A stretch of DNA of 41,630 nt from Candidatus Woesearchaeota archaeon (GTDB lineage: Archaea > Nanobdellota > Nanobdellia > Woesearchaeales > ARS49), in NCBI GenBank assembly GCA_041599235.1, contig JBFHWZ010000003.1, positions 1 through 41,630 on the forward strand, in the 5' to 3' direction. A program made the translations under genes and the position numbers. Of this stretch, positions 5,258-27,220 are shown in pieces. Under the pieces are notes generated by a model, which was given only the letters and a program-made list of their open reading frames with translations, was not told where the DNA came from and searched no databases. The first letter of the stretch is position 1, and each line of letters begins with the position of its first letter.

Positions 5258-5428
5258 TCACCCAATAAGTGCTCCTCCAAACATATGGAGCAGTATGGTT
5301 ACTATGATGACTATGACTGAAAAGATAATGACGTGCACAGGCCTGAACTCTATCTTGCTTTTGTATTCGTTAAAATAGCGCGTTAAGCCAGCTGTGCTCT
5401 GCGGCATTGATACTTGTCTGTCTGCCAT
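5258..5428 (-). CDS. secG: Preprotein translocase subunit Sec61beta
   Basis: MPQSTAGLTRYFNEYKSKIEFRP followed by a single TM helix; start set at ATG 5428. Confidence 0.92.
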   Translation of the reverse strand: MADRQVSMPQSTAGLTRYFNEYKSKIEFRPVHVIIFSVIVIIVTILLHMFGGALIG

Positions 5429-5438
5429 GGTAAAAAGG

Positions 5439-5790
5439 AAGTTGGGTGGGCGTAAGCTGCCTTCTGTCAGCCCCCGAAACACTCGTGTCAGTGCAAACAG
5501 TTTTACCTGTTTTGGACGGGCTGTCTTGGCATTCTACTAAGCGCACATACTGTGCTTGCACCTGCCAGTCCTATCCGTTTCAGCGCTCCCTTGTGCCATG
5601 CTCGGCTGGTTATCTTGCTGCTGTTGCCAGCAGTGTCGCAAGCCTCATAGCGATCACAAGGACGTGTCGTGTCTGTGATGGTGCCCTCCATTACTGGAGC
5701 TCCCTTTCGAGAGTGGCTCATTTCACGTTTCCGTGAGGTGGGCAGACTTTCCTCAGACCAAGGTCCGGTAGCCAAGTACCCTCCCAACTT
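5439..5790 (-). ncRNA. rnpB: RNase P RNA
   Basis: CR-I GAGGAAAGTCTGCC pairs with CR-V ACAGAAGGCAGCTTA (P4); P1 GTTGGGAGGG/CCCACCCAAC; P2 CTTGGC/GCCAAG; ACAGA and TGAAAC S-domain motifs; TATA box at 5814-5821. Confidence 0.95.
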
Positions 5791-7553: not shown

Positions 7554-8607
7554 ACTGGAGTATTGACCATGCTTCTTTTCCTTGCAGTACCGTTCGTTCA
7601 TGGGTTTGTTTCAGCTTATATTTTTCAGCTGCTTTGATAAACAGTTCTTTTCCAGCTCTGAATACAACCGTTAGATTGCCCTTTTTTTTGAGAATAAATG
7701 CTGCTTGATTGCACAGTTCATCATAGTGTTGTTCGATTTTCTTCTCACTGATTTGTTTAGTCAGCTCTAAGGGCATAGTGACTATGCAGTCAACGCTTTG
7801 TTTTTTGAATTTAGTGTCCAGCCATTGCAAGTCTTGCCGACTAAACTGAATGTTTTTGTGCATGCCTGCTATTTTGGCGTTTTTTTGTGAGCTTTGCAGG
7901 CTTTTGAAGTTGTTGTCGATAGCATTAATCTTAGCTTGGGGGGTTGTGATTGCTTCATCAAGCTTTGCAAAATATGCATCAAAGTCAAAAGCATTGAATT
8001 TTTTCAGTTTTCTAAACAAGAATTTGTCTTTGTTGTAGTATTGTGGTGATTGGGCACTAGCAAAAAGCGCTGCTTCAATAGGAATCACGCCCGATCTGCA
8101 GACAGGATCAATAAGCAGTTTATCGTCTGTAAACTGTGCTAGGTGTAGTGCTGCAAATGCAGTGGTGCCCTTAAGTGCCTCTTTGCCAAGGAATATTCTG
8201 TAGTCGCGTTTGCTGAGATCCCCTGAAAAGTCAATGCAGAGCACGATATTCTTGTCTTCGAAGGCAACAAACTGCACATCAGGGTTCTTAAACTCCACTT
8301 TGCCAGGAATATGTTCGCCTAGCGCTGCTTCAAGTTCTTTGTTTTTGCTTTTGACCGTAAACGTTTTGTCAATCCATTCACTAAAATCTACTTTTTTTAG
8401 TTCTTCGGGCTTTGTTATTTCTGCAATGACAAAAAGTATGGTGTTGACTGAGCGTGCTTGATAGCAAACCAAAAACAAATCTTCAAATTTTTTGAACTCA
8501 AAAAAAACCTGCCCTTCGCCCGTTGTGGTTTTAACGTCGATTAAAGAAGTGATTTCATGGGCAGCAACATCTTCTATGCCGGTGTTAGTAACTGCTATGG
8601 CTTTCAT
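7528..8607 (-). CDS. THUMP-domain RNA methyltransferase homolog (Trm14/RlmL family), catalytic motifs degenerate
   Basis: [11 protein letters not shown]-terminus, [35 protein letters not shown]. Confidence 0.85.
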
Positions 8608-11057
8608 TCTTCGCCATTCTCTGTTACTATTTTTGCTGCTGCAACAAGCTTGTCGCCTGTTTCAAGCTTCATGACGCGTACACCTTGGGTTGCCCTGCCA
8701 ATAACGCTGATGCTTCGCGCTGGAATCCTGATAATAATGCCGTTTTGGCTGATCAGCATAAGGTCTTCTTTGTCAGTAACAGCCCGCACAGTAACCACCG
8801 TACCATTTTTCTCTGTGATTTTGATGTTCGTGACCCCAACACCGCCCCTGCTGATGAGTCGGTATTCGTCAATGGCTGTGCGTTTGCCATAGCCTTTTTC
8901 TGTTACCGTAAGCAGGGTCTTGTCTGCTTCTGCAACGACCATACCCACCACTGCGTCTTTGCCTTTAAGCTTAATGCCGCGCACCCCATACGCTGTCCTG
9001 CCCATGGGCCTGACATCTTTTTCATTAAAGCGCACTGCCATGCCTTGTTCTGTTGCAATAATCACATCTTGATTGCCGTCAGTGTGCACGACTGTCACTA
9101 ATTCGTCATCTTCAGGATTGCCAATGGCTTTGATGCCGCCCCGTCGGGGATTGGCAAACTCTGCAAGGCTTGTTTTTTTGATAATGCCTTTTTTGGTGAC
9201 CATCATGAGGTATGCATGCGGGTCAAAGGTGCTGACAGGAATAAAGGTGTTGACTGTTTCGTCTTGTTCAAGCTGCAGGAGGTTGACTGCTGCTGTTCCG
9301 CGCGCATATCTGCTTGCTTCGGGCAGTTGATAGACTTTGAGCCAGTGGATCTTGCCTTTGTTGCTGAAGAAAAGTATGTAGTCGTGCGTGTTTGCTGAGA
9401 AGACATGCTCAACAAAGTCTTCTCCTTTGGTTTCTGTTGCTTTGATGCCTTTGCCGCCTCTGCGCTGTGCTTTGTACGTGTCAAGGGGCAGGCGTTTCAC
9501 ATAGCCTGCGTGGGTTATGGTCACGACCATTTGTTCTGGTTTGATCAGCTCTTCTGCTTCAAAACGCGTTGTTTCTATTTCAAGTATCTGTGTTTTTCGC
9601 TCATCGCCATACTGAGACACTAATTCAGCCATTTCGTCTTTGATAATGCCCAGTATTTTTTGTTCTGAAGCAAGAATGGTTTTAAGTTCTGCTATGAGCT
9701 TGAGCAAGTCTGCATGGTCTGCGCGTATTTTATCCTGCTCTAAACCAGTAAGTTTTTGCAAGCGCATTTCAAGAATTGCTTGCGCTTGTTTGTCAGTGAG
9801 CTTATAGTCTTGGATAAGTCCTTGTTTTGCTTCTTGCGCGCTTTTGCTCTTCTTAATCAAGGCCACAATAGGGTCTATATTATCAAGCGCAATAATCAGT
9901 CCTTCTAAGAGATGTGCTTTAGCTTCTGATTGCCTGAGGTCATATGCTGTTCGTTTTCTGACAATAACTTGTCGGTGCGTGATAAATTCTTGCAGCAAGT
10001 CTTTGAGCGCAAGCACTTTTGGCTCATTGTCCACTAAGGCCAGTTGAATGACGCCAAAGGTTGTCTGCAGTCGGGTGTGTGAGTATAATTGGTTCAAGAG
10101 CACGTCAGTGTTGGCGCCGCCTCTGAGTTCCATGACAATGCGGATGCCGTCTTTGTTTGATTCGTCGCGTAAATCAGAAATGCCGGTGATCTTTTTGTTT
10201 CTGACCAGTCCTGCTATTTCTTCAATCAGCTGGGACTTGTTGACTTGATAGGGAATTTCAGTTATGATGATGCGCGTTTTCTTCTTTGTTTCTTCAACAG
10301 CTGCTGTTCCTCTGAGCGTTATCTTTCCCCGTCCTGTTTTGAATGCATCCTGAACGCCTTTGGTGCCGCAGATAATGCCGCCAGTGGGAAAGTCAGGTGC
10401 AGGAACTGCTTTCATAAGTTCTTCAGTGCTTATGTCTGGCTTGTCAATAAGGTGCATAACTGCATTGCATACTTCTTTGATGTTATGCGGCGGAATATTG
10501 GTTGCCATGCCGACGGCAATGCCTGAGCTGCCGTTGATTAAGAGCTGCGGCGCTTTGGAGGGCAATACTGATGGTTCTTCAAGCGAGCCGTCAAAGTTAG
10601 GCACAAAAGCCACTGTTTCTTTGTCAATATCCTGCAGGAGCTCTTCAGCGAGCTTGTTGAGCTTAGCTTCTGTGTAACGCATTGCTGCTGCATTGTCACC
10701 GTCGATGCTGCCAAAGTTTCCTTGGCCATTGATTAAGGGATAGCGTAATGAGAAATCTTGTGCCATACGCACTAAGCTGTCATATACTGCCGTATCGCCA
10801 TGCGGGTGGTATTTACCAAGTACTTCTCCAACAATTCTGGCGCTTTTCTTGAAGGGTTTGTTGTGAAGCATACCCATATCATACATGGCATAGAGAACTC
10901 TCCTGTGAACAGGTTTAAGGCCATCTCTGACATCAGGCAGTGCGCGGCCTACAATGACGCTCATACTGTAGGCTAAGTATGAGCTTTTCATCTCATCCTC
11001 AATCACGCGAGGAATGATTTTTTCTGTAGGTTGTACTGCTTTTGTTTCGTCTGGCAT
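8604..11057 (-). CDS. gyrA: DNA gyrase subunit A
   Basis: [22 protein letters not shown], catalytic AAMRYTE, GyrA-box QRRGGKG, beta-pinwheel repeats. Confidence 0.99.
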
Positions 11058-11182: not shown

Positions 11183-11329
11183 TTAGTGGATTCTGCTTAT
11201 GATGTGGTTTTTGACCCGGAAGTTTCTGCCACAGTACACGCAGCTTTTGCTTTTGGTTGTCAGAATAGTGTCTCTGGACTGATATTTTTGATTGTGCTTG
11301 CACTTAGGGCATTTAAGCACAAACATCAT
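11183..11329 (-). CDS. Small Zn-ribbon protein, 48 aa (DUF1922-like)
   Basis: Manual translation MMFVLKCPKCKHNQKYQSRDTILTTKSKSCVYCGRNFRVKNHIISRIH has two CxxC motifs; ATGA overlap with the scpB stop; below the ORF-track cutoff. Confidence 0.85.
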   Translation of the reverse strand: MMFVLKCPKCKHNQKYQSRDTILTTKSKSCVYCGRNFRVKNHIISRIH

Positions 11330-12639
11330 TCTGATGCCTCGTCAGGAGCTGGCTTTTCTTCTTCAGCAGAAGCTGCAGATTGCGCTTTTTTGCTTTTCTT
11401 AGGCTTCTTCTCAGGAGGCTTTTCAGGAGCTGGCCGTAATTCTTCTATGGGCCTGATTTCTTCTGGCTTGCCTTTTGGATACACAATTTCTTCTGCACGC
11501 TGCTCAATTTGTTCTTCAAAGGTTTTAGGAATTTTCAAGGGCTTGCCTTCTTTTGGTGGTCCTTTGGGTTGCGCTTCTGCAGCAGCTTTTTTGATGCTTT
11601 CAGGAGTCATACGTTTTTCAGGCTCTTCAGCTGGAGCAGGCGCTTCCTCTTTTGGCGTTTCTGCATCCTCGGGCGTTTCTGCTGGCTTTTCTGCTTTTTC
11701 AGCAACAGACACGGCTGTTTTGACTGCTGGAGTTTCTGCTGGCTTTTCTTCTTCAGCAGGTTTCTCTTCAGGAGCTTCTGTCTTCTCAGGAACGTCTGCT
11801 TTTTCTTCAGGTTTCTCTTCTGGAGCTTCTTCAGTTACTTCTTCTGCGGTTTCTTCTGCTGTTTTTTCTGCAGCTTCTTCGAGTTCAGGTTTTTTTGCTT
11901 TTTTCCTGTGTTTTTTCTTCTTTTTCTTGTGCGGTTTGCCATGCAGATGCTCTGGTTCGCCATACACTTCAAGCTCGCCAACAGTTGTTTTTGCTTCCTC
12001 TAAGGGCGGCGTAATAGTTTCATCGTATTTCTCAATAACACCGTAGGTGTCAAGCTCGCCTGATGCTGTTTCAACCTTTTCAGGTGGCTGTGCAGCAGCT
12101 TGTTTTTCTTCCATTTCTTCTTCTTTTTTCTCAATGACTTTTTCAAGGTCTTTGTAGCCTTTGAACTTGGCTTTGAGCGCTTCTGGGGGGATGTCAAAGT
12201 ATTCAAAGAATTTCTGGGTGAGCTTGATGAGTTTTGTTCTGCCTTTTTTCTCTCGGGTGATATACCCAAGTTCTTCGAGCTGCTCAAGATGCGCGTAGGC
12301 TTTGTTGGTTCTGATCTTGATAACCAAGCTTTGCAGCACCGGTGCTTTGAAGGCAACCACAGCAAGTGTTTCAAGGATTGTTTTGGAAAGCTCTGTTTGG
12401 GTCACGATCTTGCTCACAAACGGCAGGTAGCTTTCGCGCACTTGCAGTTTCCAGGCAGGGCCCTCTTCGATAAGCATGATGCTGCTTTTTTTCTCTTCAA
12501 GCTCTGCCTTGAGCTCATAGAGTGCTTGCTTTATGCGTTCAAGGTCGCGCTCTCTGACAAGCTTGCCTAGCTCTTCGAGAGTGAGCTTTTTGCCTGAGGC
12601 AAACAGCACGCTTTCAAGGCGTTTTTTCAGTTCGCTCAT
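11326..12639 (-). CDS. scpB: SMC-Scp complex subunit ScpB with a long low-complexity C-terminal tail
   Basis: LESVLFASG, ELSKTILETLAVVAFKAPVLQS, LTQKFFEYF; the ~290-aa remainder is mostly E/K/P/A-rich. Confidence 0.92.
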   Translation of the reverse strand: MSELKKRLESVLFASGKKLTLEELGKLVRERDLERIKQALYELKAELEEKKSSIMLIEEGPAWKLQVRESYLPFVSKIVTQTELSKTILETLAVVAFKAPVLQSLVIKIRTNKAYAHLEQLEELGYITREKKGRTKLIKLTQKFFEYFDIPPEALKAKFKGYKDLEKVIEKKEEEMEEKQAAAQPPEKVETASGELDTYGVIEKYDETITPPLEEAKTTVGELEVYGEPEHLHGKPHKKKKKKHRKKAKKPELEEAAEKTAEETAEEVTEEAPEEKPEEKADVPEKTEAPEEKPAEEEKPAETPAVKTAVSVAEKAEKPAETPEDAETPKEEAPAPAEEPEKRMTPESIKKAAAEAQPKGPPKEGKPLKIPKTFEEQIEQRAEEIVYPKGKPEEIRPIEELRPAPEKPPEKKPKKSKKAQSAASAEEEKPAPDEASE

Positions 12640-13187
12640 GGTAGTTTGTACGTATCGTCCTCTTTTATCAGCCTGTTGTCTTTAACAAGATTTTTCAGGA
12701 ACGCAAGAAGTTCGTGCTTTTTGACGCCGCACAGCTCAGAAAGGTCAGTGAGTGATTTTGGTTCTTTGCAGGCGTAGAGAATAAAGTTGTTAAACACCGC
12801 AGTGACGTTCTTGTCAAGCACTGATTTTTGTGCTCTGACGGTCTTCACGACCATGTCTGCTTCATGCAGTCTGCCTTGCAGGTCATTGAGGAAGTGCGAA
12901 AGTTCATTGGTTACAAAATTAAGCTGCTCTGGTGCAAGGATTTCAATGCTGCTGGGCATTGAGTCAAAGCAGAAGTCAAGCAGTTCTTTTGGTTTTTCAA
13001 ACGTGATTTCAAGCTCAACAAAGGCGCTGAACAGCTGTTCTTGTTGTTGGGCTTCTTCAAAGTGCTCTGAGGTTATCTTCAGGCCGTCTTTTTTGAGTTT
13101 TGCAACATAGTTTTTGAGGGTTTCCTCTATGTAGTCTTTGGGTGCTCCCAGCATCTCCAGTATGGCTCGTACTTGTATTGGCTGCAT
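12636..13187 (-). CDS. Conserved-looking archaeal hypothetical protein with a C-terminal winged helix
   Basis: EMLGAPK, FSAFVELEI, MPSSIEILAP, LNDL core, then an HTH-like KSLTDLSELCGVKKHELLAFLKNLVKDNRLIKEDDTY; ATGA-coupled to scpB. Confidence 0.8.
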   Translation of the reverse strand: MQPIQVRAILEMLGAPKDYIEETLKNYVAKLKKDGLKITSEHFEEAQQQEQLFSAFVELEITFEKPKELLDFCFDSMPSSIEILAPEQLNFVTNELSHFLNDLQGRLHEADMVVKTVRAQKSVLDKNVTAVFNNFILYACKEPKSLTDLSELCGVKKHELLAFLKNLVKDNRLIKEDDTYKLP

Positions 13188-13226: not shown

Positions 13227-13739
13227 TTACTGCATGGCCTTTTGGAGGTTGACAAGCATGTATCGGTAGAGGCCGCCTCGAATATCGGGCTTCATCACCC
13301 CGTCGACCTCAATAACTGCATCTTTGTATTTTCTGCTGTCTCTGAAGGCTCTGAGGTACTGGCGGTAGAGCGCAGTCGGGCTTTCAAATTCGTTGCGCAC
13401 AACCCAAACAGGGGCACCATCCTTATTGGTGCATGAGTCATAGAGGTGCTCTGCAAAAAACCAGAAGGTTGGCTTGCATACTTTTTGGAGCTCTATGCCT
13501 GTTGTTGTTTTTCGCACACCGCACCTGCGCGCCATTTTAAGCAGTGGAGTGAAAAAATCAGGTGATGCTGGGTACTCTTGCCCTCCATTGTCTTTGTAGA
13601 TTACAGAAAAATCAGCAGTAACTGCCTGAAAAAACAATGCTTTGTACAGTTCGTAGGCCGCATCTTCAAGCTGGCCTGTCTTAATAAGCCCCCTGATTTT
13701 AGGAACAAAGGTCTTAATATCCTCTTCAAGCGTCGCCAT
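13227..13739 (-). CDS. Hypothetical protein
   Basis: 170-aa ORF with ATG start and an upstream TATA-like TTATATA; no family recognised. Confidence 0.7.
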   Translation of the reverse strand: MATLEEDIKTFVPKIRGLIKTGQLEDAAYELYKALFFQAVTADFSVIYKDNGGQEYPASPDFFTPLLKMARRCGVRKTTTGIELQKVCKPTFWFFAEHLYDSCTNKDGAPVWVVRNEFESPTALYRQYLRAFRDSRKYKDAVIEVDGVMKPDIRGGLYRYMLVNLQKAMQ

Positions 13740-13867
13740 TAAGGAAAACTATAGCAGTGCAAGAGGTATATAATGCTTATGGAGCTGCACTTCAGCAATT
13801 CACCATTATCCAATAGTGCTAAAAGTTTTTAATAGTATTTTTAGACCAGACACTACGGGTGGTAGGA

Positions 13868-14437
13868 ATGGCATTTGGATTCTTAAAAAAGAAAAAGGCC
13901 GTGGAAGAAGAGCTAGAGCTCCCTCCGCCGCCAAAACCGCCAGAGGCAATGACGTTTGATTCAGAAATACCCCCGATACGTGCAGACGATGATGACGCTG
14001 AACAACCTGCTTTTCCAGAGTTCAAGCTTGATCAGGAAGAGCCAGAAGAGGCTGAACTGCCAGAAGAAGAGCTTCCTGAAGCGCCTGTTAAAGCGCTTGA
14101 CAAAAAGCCCAGCATCATCCCGCCAGAGCTCAAAACACCTGAGCTACCAAAACCAAAAGTATTTGATAAAACAATAACTGAAGAACTGTCCCGCGAGACA
14201 GTCATTGAAAAGCCAGAAGTCAAGCCCTTGTTCGTCGCTGTCGATGACTATAAAAACGTCATGAGCAATACCAATGTCATCCGCGCTAAATTATTAGAAG
14301 CAGAGGAATATATCCAGCGCCTTGCTGACTTGAAAATCGAGGAAGAGAAAGCATTTGCGCGCTGGAAAAAACAATTAGAGTCAGTTGAAAAGAAATTAAC
14401 GTATGTTGACGCAGTCATAACTAAAGCACAAGGGTGA
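13868..14437 (+). CDS. Hypothetical protein: Pro/Glu-rich N-terminus and C-terminal coiled-coil domain (paralog 1)
   Basis: PLFVAVDDY motif then a heptad helix; SD-like GGTGG before ATG 13868. Confidence 0.85.
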   Translation: MAFGFLKKKKAVEEELELPPPPKPPEAMTFDSEIPPIRADDDDAEQPAFPEFKLDQEEPEEAELPEEELPEAPVKALDKKPSIIPPELKTPELPKPKVFDKTITEELSRETVIEKPEVKPLFVAVDDYKNVMSNTNVIRAKLLEAEEYIQRLADLKIEEEKAFARWKKQLESVEKKLTYVDAVITKAQG

Positions 14438-14442
14438 ACCGC

Positions 14443-14670
14443 ATGGATCAAAAAGCACCAGTATTTGTCAAAATTGAAGATTACCGGGACATTATTGATT
14501 TGATTTCCTTAATTAAGGACAAGCTCAGGCAATCACGTTTCTTACTGGATAAAATAACGGAATTGAAAAACCAAGAAGAGGCTGAACTGGAAAGTTGGCA
14601 AAGAGAACTACAAGACGTCGAAAAAAGAGTAAGCGAAGTCGACCGAGCCCTGTTCGAGCCCGAGCTGTAA
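14443..14670 (+). CDS. Small coiled-coil protein (paralog 2)
   Basis: PVFVKIEDY motif then a heptad helix; SD GGGTGA. Confidence 0.88.
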   Translation: MDQKAPVFVKIEDYRDIIDLISLIKDKLRQSRFLLDKITELKNQEEAELESWQRELQDVEKRVSEVDRALFEPEL

Positions 14671-15008
14671 AAGAAGCGTTTTTTGTGGGCATCAAAGACC
14701 CCATGGAAGTGCGCAAAGAACTCCTGCTCGGCTCAAAGGACCTCATCACAAGCTTGAAAAAGTATGATGAGTTTGTACACTTGCGCGAAGCTAAGCAAAA
14801 GTACATAGAAGAGCTCAAAATAGTCATGGATGAATTGCTTGTTCTGAACAAACGCTTGCGAACGCACTTGCCAAAGACTCCTTTGAAAGGGCCACGTGTA
14901 GTGCGCAAGGTTGAACCCCCTAAAAAGCCCAAGTCTCCAAGAGATCAACTGGACGTGCTCGAAAGAGAATTGTCACGAGTCGAGTCTCGGCTGCAAGCAC
15001 TGGAATGA
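14595..15008 (+). CDS. Coiled-coil protein (paralog 3), start uncertain
   Basis: AFFVGIKDP motif, long helix, C-terminal LERELSRVESRL helix; the TTG start overlaps the previous gene by 76 nt. Confidence 0.78.
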   Translation: MAKRTTRRRKKSKRSRPSPVRARAVKEAFFVGIKDPMEVRKELLLGSKDLITSLKKYDEFVHLREAKQKYIEELKIVMDELLVLNKRLRTHLPKTPLKGPRVVRKVEPPKKPKSPRDQLDVLERELSRVESRLQALE

Positions 15009-15090: not shown

Positions 15091-15203
15091 GCGGAGGTTC
15101 CCGAGTGGCCAAAGGGGATGGCCTCAAGCGCACACTTGCCACAGTTGTTGTGGTGAAAGCCATTGACTTAGTGTCTTCGCAGGTTCAAATCCTGCCCTCC
15201 GCA
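15091..15203 (+). tRNA. tRNA-Leu(CAA) with a 29-nt intron at 37/38 (15129-15157)
   Basis: Acceptor GCGGAGG/CCTCCGC+A73, anticodon stem ATGGC/GCCAT interrupted after CTCAAG, long variable arm, GCAGG-TTCAAAT-CCTGC; TATA at 15058-15065. Confidence 0.9.
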
Positions 15204-19370: not shown

Positions 19371-19826
19371 TTATTTGTTCCCAAAGTAGAACATTTTCTC
19401 AATAGAAACGTCTTCGGAGTTGAACTCGCCTTGTTTTGGGTGCGGTTCTTCTTTCTTAGCTGCAAGGGTTGCTTGCTGTTCTGCTTTTGGTGGGGCTATC
19501 GTTTGCTGTGCTTGTTGCGGAGCTCGGGGAGCTTGCCTGAGCTGATCCACGTCAGCTTTGAGTTGCTGGAGCTCTGCTGCGATTTTCTGAATATACTCTC
19601 CTAAGCGCCTGTTTTCGCGTTCAAGATGTACTTGATAGAGCTGGTCTGATGATGGGTTCTCAACAGTTTTAGTTGATTCTTTTGCTCGATGCAAGAATTC
19701 ACGCACTTCATCTTGGCGCACCATTTGTTCTGCTTGTTCAAAGGCAGCATCAGAGCTGTCAGCCATATTATGCCTGCGTAATTCAGCGCTCAGCTGATTG
19801 ACTTTGCGTAGTTTTTCAACATCCAT
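19371..19826 (-). CDS. Hypothetical coiled-coil protein with a C-terminal IEKMFYFG peptide
   Basis: Strong SD GGAGG; helical core, Gln/Pro linker, motif-like C-terminus. Confidence 0.85.
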   Translation of the reverse strand: MDVEKLRKVNQLSAELRRHNMADSSDAAFEQAEQMVRQDEVREFLHRAKESTKTVENPSSDQLYQVHLERENRRLGEYIQKIAAELQQLKADVDQLRQAPRAPQQAQQTIAPPKAEQQATLAAKKEEPHPKQGEFNSEDVSIEKMFYFGNK

Positions 19827-19841
19827 GGTAATCCTCCTCTT

Positions 19842-20096
19842 TTACTCAATCACTAAGTATCCATCTTGATTGATAACAAAGCTTCGTTTTTTCTCAACAG
19901 GCACTTCTTCTGTTTTCTTGACTGGTGCCGTGGGTGCTGCTGGTATGCGTGCTCGTTTCATGCTGCCTAAGAGGTTCACGCATTTTGCGCAGTATTCCTT
20001 AATGCCCTCTTTTTTGGCAACACAGTGTTTGCACATACGGTTGCCGCACCAGTTGCAGTCTTTGATTAAATCCCGTTTATGAAATCGACATTTCAT
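19842..20096 (-). CDS. Small Cys/His-rich zinc-finger protein (B-box-like)
   Basis: CxxH...CxxC...CxxC...CxxC; TATA box 22 nt upstream. Confidence 0.8.
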   Translation of the reverse strand: MKCRFHKRDLIKDCNWCGNRMCKHCVAKKEGIKEYCAKCVNLLGSMKRARIPAAPTAPVKKTEEVPVEKKRSFVINQDGYLVIE

Positions 20097-20180
20097 GGTG
20101 TGTTTTGTAAAAAGCTAGTATATAAATGTTACTATTTCGTATACTGAAGTTTTATATATCCCTAGCTTCAAAATCCCGCC

Positions 20181-20606
20181 ATGCGCAAAGAGGACCTTAA
20201 AGACTGGATACTGCATTATCTGAAAAGCAAGGATGTTTTTCAGAAAGCGATTCAGGGCATTCAAGAAGACCAGGATGGCTATGACTTACTGGTCAAGCGC
20301 TCAGACAATGACCAGCATGTGCTCATTCTGCCTGAGCTCACTGATTTAGCTGCTGTTGAGAAAAAGTGCAATGACAAACACTTGTTAGTGGTTGTAGCCA
20401 ACTCACGCAAGAACCTCACCTTTGTACTGAAAAACTGGCTGCGTTTAGCAACCCATAAGCGATTGTGCTTGTTTTTTGTCAATCCAAAAAGCATAACAGA
20501 AAAACGCTGGATTATCTATCCGCACACACATAATGCTATAACTGAGAAATCAGCTCTCAAAAAAGGGCTGGAAGCCTTGTTTGCAACAGTTGATGAAGCG
20601 TTTTAA
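20181..20606 (+). CDS. Hypothetical protein
   Basis: 141-aa ORF; TATA TTTATATA at 20151-20158. Confidence 0.8.
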   Translation: MRKEDLKDWILHYLKSKDVFQKAIQGIQEDQDGYDLLVKRSDNDQHVLILPELTDLAAVEKKCNDKHLLVVVANSRKNLTFVLKNWLRLATHKRLCLFFVNPKSITEKRWIIYPHTHNAITEKSALKKGLEALFATVDEAF

Positions 20607-20878
20607 GCTGCTTCTTCTTCGCCTTCTTTGTAGCTTGGCACTGCTGCTCTGCTGATAAGCACAATATCGCCAATGGCCTTAACAAGAGAATGTGGTACAA
20701 TAACGCCTTTGGCACTGCCGAGCACTTTGCTCAGAAATGAGTTTTTGCTTGCTTTGACGCGCCACCCATATACTTTTGTCTGCGTCAGCATGATTTCTTC
20801 AACATCACCGAAATATTCACCTGTATCAGTAAAGACCTTCATGTCAAAAGTGTCAGTAATTTTTTTCATCTTGAGCAT
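20603..20878 (-). CDS. PRC-barrel domain protein (CdpB-like)
   Basis: VFTDTGEYFGDVEEI...GVIVPHSLVKAIGDIVLI; SD AAGGAGG. Confidence 0.9.
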   Translation of the reverse strand: MLKMKKITDTFDMKVFTDTGEYFGDVEEIMLTQTKVYGWRVKASKNSFLSKVLGSAKGVIVPHSLVKAIGDIVLISRAAVPSYKEGEEEAA

Positions 20879-25495: not shown

Positions 25496-25843
25496 TTATT
25501 CTTGGTTGAACTTGCTTATATACTTTGTCATGCCCTCTATCTGTCGTAGCTGCGTTTCTTTGAACAAAAATTCCCTGAACTGGTTGTCAATCGTAACGCC
25601 GTGCTTTTGCAGGTCTTGCCTGAGCCGTGCAAACAGTTCTTTGCCTTTTCTATCCAGGTCAGTGAGAATAACAACTGTTTTTGTTATGGCAGCCACTTCT
25701 TCTACTGTTGCATACAAGGGCTTTTTGAGGGTTATGATCTTCTTGAGCCCGAGCGCTTCGAGGGCCTGTTTATCTTTTAAGCCTTCGACAATAATATAGG
25801 GTTGTTCTTCAACAAGTTTGGCTATCCAATCATGCAAGTCCAT
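25496..25843 (-). CDS. Small stand-alone Toprim domain protein
   Basis: IIVEGLKD...VILTDLDRKG. Confidence 0.9.
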   Translation of the reverse strand: MDLHDWIAKLVEEQPYIIVEGLKDKQALEALGLKKIITLKKPLYATVEEVAAITKTVVILTDLDRKGKELFARLRQDLQKHGVTIDNQFREFLFKETQLRQIEGMTKYISKFNQE

Positions 25844-25894
25844 GGCCAGAGAAAGATTTTTTATACTCTTAAGGCTTTGCTTTCTTGGGGGACC

Positions 25895-27220
25895 ATGATT
25901 AGTCTAAGCACGTCATTGTTGTATTATAAACGCGAAGATATTTGCAAGGCTCTGGTGGCTACTGCCGAGGATAAAGAGATTGCGGTCAGGTTTAATGATC
26001 AGTTTGGCAAGCGTCCTGATGTGCTCAAATACCCCAAAGATGTTCTTGAGTTTGCAAAAAAAGGAGCAACCAGCTTCCATTGCAGTGAAGAGCTCTGGCA
26101 TAATCCCTTGCAGCTGGTGCCGGGCATGAAAAAAAAGGAAATGGACGAGCTGCGGAAGAGCTGGGATTTAGTGCTTGACATTGACTGCAAGGTCTTTGAG
26201 TACTCGCGCCTTGCTGCTGATTTGGTGGTTAAAGCACTGCAGCATCATGGGGTTAAGACAGTGAGCGTAAAGTTCAGCGGCAATAATGGGTTTCATATTG
26301 CTGTTCCTGCTGCTGCGTTTCCTGACACTGTTGCTGGGGAGAATATCAAGGACTTGTTTCCTGATGGGCCAAAGCGCATTGCCATGTACTTGCAGCACAT
26401 GATCAAGCCATATCTGGCACAGCAATTGCTCAGTATGGAAAAAATGACCAAGCTGCTTGAGCGCACAGGCAAAAAGTACAGCGATGTGGTCAAAAACAAT
26501 GAATTTAATCCGTTTGAAATCGTCGATATTGATACTGTTCTCATTAATTCGCGCCATTTATACCGCATGGCATATTCCTTGAATGAAAAATCTGGCTTGG
26601 CAAGCATCCCTCTTGAGCCAGAAGCAATACGGACCTTTGATAAAAGCAAGGCGCAGCCGCAGAAAGTGAAAGTCACCTTGGGGTATCTTGACCAGCAGCC
26701 TGTTCCTGGCGAAGCAACCAAGCTCTTGGTGCAAGCGCTTGATTTTAAGATTCCGCAAGAGCAGTCGCAGAACATACGCGAGAAAAAAGAGTTTGAAATT
26801 CCTGAGCAAGCCATTGGCACTGAGTTTTTCCCTGCCTGCATTAAGAAGATACTGCAGGGCTTGCCTGACGGTAAAAAGCGCGCAGTGTTTGTCTTGATTA
26901 ATTTTCTCAGCAGTGTTGGCTGGGAGTATGATGCCATAGAGGACTTGTTGCATGCCTGGAATGAAAAAAATGCTGAGCCGCTCAGGGAAGTATATATACA
27001 GGGCCAGTTGCGCTATCATAAGACTTCTCAGAAAAAGATTTTACCGCCGAATTGCGGCAATAAGGCCTATTATGCTGACTTGGGCATCAAGTGTGATGAA
27101 GCTGTTTGTTCACGCTGCAAAAATCCAGTAAATGCAGCCATCAAAAACCACAGGTTAAGTAGGTTAACAAAGAAACCCGTTAAGAAGGCTACGAAAAAGG
27201 ACTCGTCTGCTCAACAATAA
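25895..27220 (+). CDS. Fused archaeo-eukaryotic DNA primase (PriS catalytic domain plus PriL C-terminal Fe-S domain)
   Basis: WDLVLDID, KFSGNNGFH, RMAYSLNEKSG; then FPAC...DGKKR...PPNC...C...CxxCKNP; start at ATG 25895. Confidence 0.92.
   Translation: MISLSTSLLYYKREDICKALVATAEDKEIAVRFNDQFGKRPDVLKYPKDVLEFAKKGATSFHCSEELWHNPLQLVPGMKKKEMDELRKSWDLVLDIDCKVFEYSRLAADLVVKALQHHGVKTVSVKFSGNNGFHIAVPAAAFPDTVAGENIKDLFPDGPKRIAMYLQHMIKPYLAQQLLSMEKMTKLLERTGKKYSDVVKNNEFNPFEIVDIDTVLINSRHLYRMAYSLNEKSGLASIPLEPEAIRTFDKSKAQPQKVKVTLGYLDQQPVPGEATKLLVQALDFKIPQEQSQNIREKKEFEIPEQAIGTEFFPACIKKILQGLPDGKKRAVFVLINFLSSVGWEYDAIEDLLHAWNEKNAEPLREVYIQGQLRYHKTSQKKILPPNCGNKAYYADLGIKCDEAVCSRCKNPVNAAIKNHRLSRLTKKPVKKATKKDSSAQQ

Follow-up and report, generated by a model that had tools for sequence, protein, structure and literature searches.

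A 41,630-nucleotide (nt) stretch of DNA from a Candidatus Woesearchaeota archaeon (assembly GCA_041599235.1, contig JBFHWZ010000003.1, positions 1 to 41,630; hereafter the window) contains three consecutive plus-strand open reading frames (ORFs), ORF1, ORF2 and ORF3. A preliminary description of the sequence had picked these out, between positions 13868 and 15008, as an operon of three paralogous proteins sharing one module, a short hydrophobic strand followed by a heptad helix. The genes do lie at this position, and the peptides quoted for them fall within their ORFs. We show here that the trio, rather than the neighbourhood that surrounds it, is the conserved unit, and that the C-terminal ~70 residues of ORF1 and ORF2 are true paralogs. 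Homology of ORF3 to their module is not demonstrable, and the set is made up of two paralogs and a third subunit of similar design.

Related loci were collected by scanning one genome per GTDB species for the strand pattern of the short form, ORF2. The scan returned 177 stretches, 175 of them confirmed, and 80 were retained; because it is limited to one peptide pattern it provides a lower bound without a denominator. When family hidden Markov models (HMMs) were run on all ORFs of these 80 loci, the order ORF1-ORF2-ORF3 on one strand was recovered in 79, and the exceptional locus (L080) ends at a contig edge just upstream of ORF2. The genes presented earlier as an operon are strictly co-conserved and tightly coupled. 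With the most upstream start codon taken as the start, 31 of the 80 loci show a 4-nt overlap between the end of ORF1 and the beginning of ORF2, while the ORF2/ORF3 junction is a 4-nt overlap in 21 and a spacing of 0-1 nt in 20. In ~10 loci the intact trio sits among genes for carbamoyl-phosphate synthase, aspartate carbamoyltransferase, phosphate transport, photolyase and the like. Conservation across the 80 loci also rules out that the three ORFs are spurious. NCBI labels assign 42 of the loci to Woesearchaeota, 12 to Nanobdellota, 23 to 'uncultured Methanosarcinales' (third-party annotation metagenome-assembled genomes) and one to Binatia, with two unlabelled; the 'Methanosarcinales' rows intermix with the Woesearchaeota rows and have the same synteny, and we infer that these labels are wrong.

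The family is large. Word-indexed searches returned 9, 12 and 10 proteins for the three genes (the window's own counted), all unnamed or 'hypothetical', those with names being labelled Woesearchaeota. An exhaustive HMMER search with the module profile found 2599 cluster representatives at an expectation value (E) of at most 1e-3, 877 at E<=1e-10 and 21 at E<=1e-30. Among the 150 matches listed, 17 were of at most 90 amino acids (aa) and 133 were longer, and a PPxP motif was present in the first 110 residues of 113 of the 123 listed matches of at least 140 aa. A six-frame scan revealed no extra copies of the module in the window.

The relationship between ORF1 and ORF2 is clear. BLASTP aligned residues 120-184 of ORF1 with residues 9-73 of ORF2 over 65 aa (29% identity, E 3e-12), and comparison of the two family profiles by hhalign gave a probability of 97.3% (E 2.5e-11, 66 columns), bearing out the gapless alignment proposed for the first two proteins. 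Column-averaged hydrophobicity of the ORF1 module and ORF2 correlates with r = 0.84 at the paralog offset, and a FastTree phylogeny built from 74 columns splits 80 ORF1 modules from 81 ORF2 sequences by one branch with a support of 99. Because the tree separates the two groups along this one branch, the duplication is older than all 80 related genomes sampled, both copies having been retained. The geometry of the helices is also fixed. In the averaged hydrophobicity of 75 ORF2 homologs the 3-4 heptad spacing is unbroken over residues 28-70, and the distance from strand to proline is 66 aa in all 75 ORF2 sequences (F8-P73), 66 aa in 77 of 80 ORF1 modules (65 aa in the remaining three) and 64 aa in 79 of 79 ORF3 sequences (F30-P93). 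The helical regions of all three families are essentially free of indels, and their geometry is rigid.

The claim of three paralogs with one module stands for ORF1 and ORF2 but not for ORF3. BLASTP of ORF3 against the other two proteins was non-significant (E 0.55-0.59), and hhalign comparisons were short or weak overall (E 0.0012-0.043, probability 1-19%): small profiles aligned at the strand motif alone, over 11-15 columns (E 0.02-0.04), deep profiles of 75 and 79 sequences paired ORF2 45-67 with the C-terminal helix of ORF3 (E 0.0012, probability 19%), and relaxed settings placed ORF1 113-185 against ORF3 20-93 (E 0.0074, probability 5%). In a test with reversed sequences as decoys, in which the ORF2-ORF1 positive control gave 80/80, the ORF3-HMM scored a median of 8.0 bits on real ORF2, barely above the 4.5 bits on reversed ORF2, with 12 of 81 ORF2 sequences beating the best decoy; there was no excess over decoys on ORF1 modules (1/80), and the reverse searches gave only 2/81 and 0/81.

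The gapless register in which the preliminary description had aligned ORF3 (ORF2 i = ORF1 i+114 = ORF3 i+22) nevertheless scores higher than every other offset for ORF2-ORF3 and again, in an independent comparison, for ORF1-ORF3. Hydrophobicity correlates at this register with r 0.38 and 0.46, respectively, and the BLOSUM profile score reaches a z of ~3 relative to other offsets, a value attained by none of 5000 column permutations. With heptad phase preserved, the excess persists when the strand is included (p 0.004-0.005) but is gone when the strand is removed (p 0.19-0.23). Core positions coincide at this register, and the prolines that end the helices of the three proteins lie within two residues of each other. 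What ORF3 has in common with the module is thus the strand motif, the heptad phase and a nearly equal indel-free length, and we read it as a subunit that would be either extremely diverged or convergent and built to match the paralogs.

It could be argued that the three genes are co-transcribed without their products forming one complex, ORF3 being an unrelated small regulator or nucleic-acid-binding protein of ribbon-helix-helix-like type, and ORF1 and ORF2 acting separately. The absence of detectable homology between ORF3 and the module is consistent with this view, as are the conserved ORF3 pattern FFVGI..R..LL(G/S)SK, which reads as strand, short helix, G/S-S-K turn and helix, and a co-evolution test that gave no signal specific to the trio (see below). 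We consider the proposal improbable, however, given the invariant order and tight junctions in 79 of 80 loci, and a helical length in ORF3 that is fixed, lies within two residues of that of the module and follows the same heptad phase from the strand on. In addition, no ribbon-helix-helix family is among the 25 most often matched by the 79 ORF3 homologs, and the ORF3 helix that precedes the turn seems shorter than the first helix of the ribbon-helix-helix fold.

Each family has a distinct anatomy (Table 1). In ORF1 the MAFGFLKKKK-type N-terminus and the poly-Pro acidic linker, both singled out in the preliminary description, are conserved across homologs. Of 80 sequences, 76, 72 and 69 are hydrophobic at positions 3, 5 and 6, 62, 72, 58 and 55 carry K/R at positions 7 to 10, and 74, 72 and 77 have Pro at positions 19, 20 and 22. 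This N-terminus looks like a membrane-targeting peptide. The linker that follows has a median length of 113 aa, contains 20% Pro and is net negative in 63 of 70 sequences (median -11.5). ORF2 comprises the strand PVFVKI, a continuous heptad helix and a C-terminal LFEPE (family motif L-(F/L)-E-P), has a median net charge of -7, and displays conserved polar residues in mid-helix: K42 in 74, E45 in 75, D46 in 72 and E48 in 71 of 75 homologs. In ORF3 the near-invariant residues are R40, L44, K48, L54, K67, L74 and P93, the linker carries a net positive charge in 68 of 73 sequences, and the columns aligned with K42 and E45 of ORF2 hold R/K in 74 and K in 76 of 79 homologs, a charge pattern that would suit a mixed polar layer and equally the flank of a hairpin turn. 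Charges across the set are complementary, the ORF1 linker and ORF2 being negative and the ORF3 linker positive. The pace of ORF2 evolution is about as slow as that of RNase J (mean Kimura distances of 0.76 and 0.69), the ORF1 module (1.40) and ORF3 (1.30) being faster.

Two of the gene starts deserve comment. The public call for ORF2 is 75 aa, and an alternative GTG start at 14434 would give 78 aa and a 4-nt overlap with the ORF1 stop. For ORF3 the public call (107 aa from GTG 14686) removes the two Phe of the conserved FFVGI motif; we adopted TTG 14595 because three close homologs retain the longer basic N-terminus (MAKR...). Most ORF3 homologs in the 80 loci begin ~5 residues before FFVGI, and the basic tail is thus a clade-specific addition and not a general trait. 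Of the two extensions originally ascribed to the third protein, only the second C-terminal helix is widely conserved. The tail, of 25-27 residues, is encoded in an alternative frame of the acidic 3' end of ORF2 (14595-14670). In some related clades it is encoded 3' of the ORF2 stop, and the majority lack it. A purine-rich GGTGG/AGGA stretch follows a TATA-like candidate and lies immediately 5' of the ORF1 start; a TATA-like hexamer occurs at -50 to -15 in only 28 of the 62 loci with a refined ORF1 start. Operon limits could not be delimited from T-run terminators or TATA motifs, as 60 of 80 loci have runs of at least five T within the coding region; such runs occur 3' of ORF3 in 49. Downstream of ORF3 in the window, at a distance of 83 nt, is a tRNA-Leu(CAA) gene with a 29-nt intron, detected by Rfam (43 bits) and by aragorn -i but not by default ARAGORN; in several related loci, such as L021, L023 and L029, the trio has an intron-less tRNA-Leu(CAA) gene nearby.

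Table 1. Coordinates of the trio and of other features discussed, in window positions.
Feature	Position	Strand	Details
TATA-like element, candidate (TTTTTAATA)	13826..13834	+	34-42 nt 5' of ORF1 ATG; found by sequence inspection
ORF1, long form	13868..14437	+	189 aa from ATG 13868
ORF1 parts			residues 1-10 MAFGFLKKKK; 19-25 PPPPxPP motif; ~26-117 acidic proline-rich linker; ~118-189 module
ORF1 module part	14219..14434	+	residues 118-189; strand PLFVAV and heptad helix; paralogous to ORF2
ORF2, short form	14443..14670	+	75 aa from ATG 14443; module alone
ORF3	14595..15008	+	137 aa from TTG 14595; 76-nt overlap with ORF2
ORF3 parts			residues 1-27 basic tail; 28-93 FFVGI strand and heptad helix to LPKT; 94-114 basic linker; 115-137 conserved C-terminal amphipathic helix
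tRNA-Leu(CAA)	15091-15203	+	intron-bearing
170-aa ORF	13227-13739	-	between winged-helix gene and ORF1
Winged-helix-like protein gene	12636-13187	-	183 aa; ScpA position, directly upstream of scpB
scpB	11326-12639	-	437 aa; ScpB domain only at residues ~3-151
gyrA	8604-11057	-	
PRC-barrel gene	20603-20878	-	91 aa; PF05239, E 2.1e-7
Coiled-coil/Zn-ribbon/PRC-barrel cluster	19371-20878	-	proteins of 151, 84 and 91 aa
Annotation gap (754 nt), features within	5258-5785	-	Sec61-beta gene and RNase P RNA
Sec61-beta gene	5258-5482	-	PF03911, E 8.7e-12
Archaeal RNase P RNA	5444-5785	-	126 bits
Fused PriS-PriL ORF	25802-27220	+	472 aa; primase small- and large-subunit Pfam domains

The preliminary description recognised no named family in these proteins, and this assessment is upheld against Pfam, NCBIfam, PADLOC and the sequences of the Protein Data Bank (PDB), the libraries in which the trio family appears to be undescribed. 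The window's ORF1-3 matched nothing in Pfam or NCBIfam better than E 0.02. Scans of individual homologs against Pfam (75 of ORF2, 79 of ORF3 and 80 of ORF1, at E<=0.1, with the 25 most often matched families listed for each set) returned only scattered coiled-coil families. The best E values in hmmsearch against PDB chains were 4.2 for the module profile (A4) and 0.16, 0.18 and 0.13 for three others (A1, A8 and A9), and the top chains, all non-significant, were nearly all coiled coils or designed helical proteins. No published description of the family was found in a literature search, the reach of which excluded supplementary tables that could list the genes. PADLOC gave no match for ORF1-3, which lends no support to a defence-system reading, and a tblastn search of ORF1 against 50,697 phage records was empty, as against a phage origin.

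We tentatively favour a model in which the trio encodes a co-translated, membrane-tethered heteromeric coiled-coil scaffold, with ORF1 as anchor and spacer, ORF2 as its paralogous core partner and ORF3 as the adaptor end. The three proteins would be made from one transcript with coupled translation and would join in one small cytoplasmic complex on the inner face of the membrane. The hydrophobic-then-basic N-terminal peptide of ORF1 would bind the membrane and its acidic proline-rich linker would act as a flexible spacer, while its C-terminal module, a short strand and a ~55-residue heptad helix, would pair with the paralogous module of ORF2. ORF3 would enter the helical core, its basic linker and conserved C-terminal helix would serve as the output or adaptor end, and the mid-helix polar pair (K/E in ORF1 and ORF2, R/K in the aligned ORF3 columns) would set the register or the choice of partner. 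We favour a complex because the order of the trio is kept in 79 of 80 loci with tight junctions and is intact in the ~10 loci with other neighbours, and because of the ancient retained duplication, the rigid lengths, the slow evolution of ORF2, the conserved ORF1 motifs, the charge complementarity, the shared register and the size of the family. Membrane binding, mutual binding of the subunits and their stoichiometry are predictions from these features.

Several points weigh against this model. The evidence for a complex comes from sequence features and gene order; the putative membrane peptide of ORF1 is only ~10 residues long, and its helical hydrophobic moment is modest (median 0.33 in the 35 of 80 sequences caught by a strict pattern). 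A mirror-tree test gave no trio-specific signal beyond shared phylogeny, the partial correlations within the trio (r 0.35-0.53) being matched by those of the trio with the unrelated PCNA (r 0.41-0.56). The mid-helix polar cluster could equally be the turn of a helical hairpin and not a register layer. In none of the 80 loci is a gene for FtsZ, SepF, Min, Cdv or SMC found within or directly beside the trio, and the conserved neighbourhood may be synteny inherited within one order.

The scaffold may provide a membrane site for cell division or for holding the chromosome, which is the most speculative part of the favoured model. We infer such a role solely from the neighbouring genes for ScpB, GyrA, RNase J and PCNA, whose conservation is loose. 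In the usual arrangement gyrA, scpB and a gene for a winged-helix protein of 183-194 aa lie upstream on the opposite strand, followed by a variable insert, the trio, a further variable segment and the genes for RNase J and PCNA in the direction of the trio. ScpB was found in 53 of the 80 loci, the winged-helix protein in 51, RNase J in 53, PCNA in 40 and GyrA in 41, counts affected by the many loci that are shortened by contig ends. The preliminary description had cited scpB, gyrA and a PRC-barrel gene in support of a function in division, cell shape or chromosome segregation. All three genes are present in the window, but the support they lend is weak: ~10 of the 80 trios lie among metabolic genes, and the PRC-barrel gene, 5.6 kilobases (kb) from the trio and on the opposite strand, says little about role because PRC-barrel proteins are near-universal in archaea, occurring in 509 of 524 archaeal genomes according to the available text of 10.1101/2023.03.28.534520.

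The same neighbourhood raises the possibility that the trio tethers the chromosome to the membrane together with SMC-ScpB, ORF1 being fixed to the membrane and the basic linker of ORF3, along with its basic tail in some clades, binding DNA, in nucleoid positioning or segregation. ScpB and the protein in the ScpA position are encoded divergently upstream at the frequencies given above, as is GyrA; the winged-helix gene directly adjoins ORF1, across a spacer of ~100-145 base pairs, in 19 of 44 scorable loci; and the ORF3 linker is positively charged in most homologs. These observations are offset by the ~10 loci in which the trio has no ScpB-type neighbours, by inserts of up to several genes between the two units in many loci, and by the lack of the basic N-terminal tail in most ORF3 homologs. 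Furthermore, ORF3 has no match to any DNA-binding family in the Pfam and PDB scans, and the distance-matrix correlation of the trio with ScpB is not above that with PCNA. We therefore regard such a tether as unlikely.

The upstream unit has features of its own. The winged-helix-like protein, which occupies the ScpA position, has no ScpA match in Pfam, NCBIfam or the PDB, and only weak winged-helix-type matches to PDB chains, with the winged-helix-like region at its C-terminus; the distance matrix most strongly correlated with its own is that of ScpB (r 0.81), and the protein may be a divergent kleisin. Beyond its domain, the window's ScpB carries a remainder of ~280 residues that is a K/E/P/A-rich low-complexity tail. 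Between the winged-helix gene and ORF1, the window has an ORF of 170 aa that matched neither Pfam nor NCBIfam, has no counterpart in any of the 80 loci and forms a singleton cluster; in 27 other loci this slot holds a lamin-tail-domain protein of ~585 aa.

A further possibility is that the trio is a system resembling CdvA or the ESCRT-I steadiness box, in which each helix folds as a hairpin that turns at the LKNQED cluster, the paralogs assemble like CdvA-related paralogs or ESCRT-I subunits, and the complex remodels membranes, possibly with a separate PRC-barrel protein. In both kinds of protein a long helical region follows a beta element, and PMC11188069 describes PF18822 as a helical hairpin resembling the steadiness box of ESCRT-I and reports two adjacent CdvA-related paralogs in Thermoproteales; the ESCRT-I stalk is made up of three long helices (PMC11188069, PMC5840170). 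In the trio the polar cluster divides the helix into halves of about the same length, a PRC-barrel gene is found at a distance of 5.6 kb, and PF18822 matched 3 of 80 ORF1 homologs. The best of these matches (E 0.019) is far short of the family cut-off, however, and they are at noise level, given that ~1.6 matches at E 0.02 are expected by chance for all families across 80 proteins; PF18822 is not among the 25 listed families for the 75 ORF2 or 79 ORF3 homologs. The putative turn contains no Gly or Pro and the heptad phase continues through it. In contrast to CdvA, the trio has no fused PRC barrel (there is no PRC match in ORF1-3, and the PRC gene is separate), and neither an E3B peptide nor a winged-helix ESCRT-III partner was seen with it. 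The trio neither contains nor adjoins a gene for Vps4, ESCRT-III or a winged-helix partner, Snf7 and PspA_IM30 are without a match in the window proteins and in the per-member lists, and DPANN are reported to be mostly FtsZ-based (93.2% of genomes; PMC8407392). We regard a CdvA- or ESCRT-I-like system of this kind as unlikely.

The trio also recalls several other systems without matching them. SepF, which anchors FtsZ to the membrane in bacteria and archaea, has, like ORF1, an N-terminal membrane-targeting peptide (putative in ORF1), a linker and a small C-terminal domain that opens with a strand and a helix. The core of SepF is alpha/beta, whereas the C-terminal part of ORF1 is a long heptad helix, and SepF (PF04472) had no match in the window proteins and is not among the 25 most-matched families of any homolog set. 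The available text of 10.1101/2020.10.06.327809 describes the SepF membrane-targeting sequence and the use of a Woesearchaeota SepF sequence as query; because of the latter, SepF apparently exists separately in this lineage. CdpA of haloarchaea and ZipA of gamma-proteobacteria, which tether the division ring, likewise combine a membrane anchor, a long disordered linker and a small C-terminal domain (PMC12126565). Their anchors are transmembrane segments, as opposed to the short putative peripheral peptide of ORF1, they have no sequence relation to ORF1, and neither belongs to an operon that also encodes a paralog and a third subunit with a coiled coil. ZapA and ZapB, proteins of the bacterial Z-ring, are similarly small with a long coiled coil, and ZapA begins with a small beta element. 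In hhalign comparisons the ORF2 and ORF3 families gave probabilities of only 0.3% and 0.1% against Escherichia coli ZapA, and the ORF2 family 4.3% against ZapB. V-SNARE_C matched 4 of 75 ORF2 homologs at noise level (best E 0.012), a SNARE-type C-terminal hydrophobic segment is missing from the ORF1-3 sequences, and the conserved polar mid-helix layer is an analogy only. Prefoldin was matched by one of 80 ORF1 homologs (E 0.048) and is not listed for the ORF2 or ORF3 homologs.

Dip, in FtsZ-using archaea, is likewise a three-gene operon (DipA, DipB and DipC) of small proteins linked to membrane and division and located near replication genes. As described in the available text of 10.64898/2026.05.19.726155, Dip consists of the GTPase DipA, the DUF2073 SepF-like DipB and the Zn-ribbon DipC, and within DPANN it is reported there only in Nanohalarchaeota. 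ORF1-3 gave no GTPase, DUF2073 or Zn-ribbon match in Pfam or NCBIfam. It is conceivable, if improbable, that Woesearchaeales-type DPANN use the trio throughout the lineage as a cytoskeletal or division apparatus that has so far gone unrecognised. In that case the proteins would form a heterotrimeric coiled-coil stalk, anchored in the membrane and linking it to the division ring or chromosome, and this stalk would possibly be related, distantly and through a strand-plus-hairpin design, to CdvA and the ESCRT-I steadiness box. Such an apparatus would operate in cells for which the Dip system of other FtsZ-using archaea is not reported in the portion of 10.64898/2026.05.19.726155 at hand.

Elsewhere in the window lie ribosomal-protein operons and genes for an rpoD-type RNA polymerase subunit, PCNA, RNase J, Hef and SecY. 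The 91-aa PRC-barrel protein belongs to a conserved cluster with a 151-aa coiled-coil and an 84-aa Zn-ribbon protein, which a TraB-family gene adjoins; the same order recurs in several related loci. The Zn-ribbon protein, with its short tail, loosely recalls DipC as the latter is described in the available text. By their coordinates the Sec61-beta gene and the archaeal RNase P RNA, both in an annotation gap, overlap by ~40 nt. A single ORF with both primase domains encodes a fused PriS-PriL.

To our knowledge, almost nothing is known of how DPANN archaea organise their membranes, division rings and chromosomes, and we know of no genetically tractable member of the Woesearchaeota. From its intact conservation in at least 175 species-level genomes, tight length constraint and recognisable anchor-plus-linker design, the trio is therefore a concrete and cheaply testable candidate for a lineage-specific cell-biology module, consisting of three small soluble proteins. 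Should the proteins prove to be only a generic scaffold, there would be three 'hypothetical proteins' fewer in a core genomic region. Kinship with the CdvA/ESCRT-I hairpin, if it proved true, would mean that this building block reaches into FtsZ-using DPANN.

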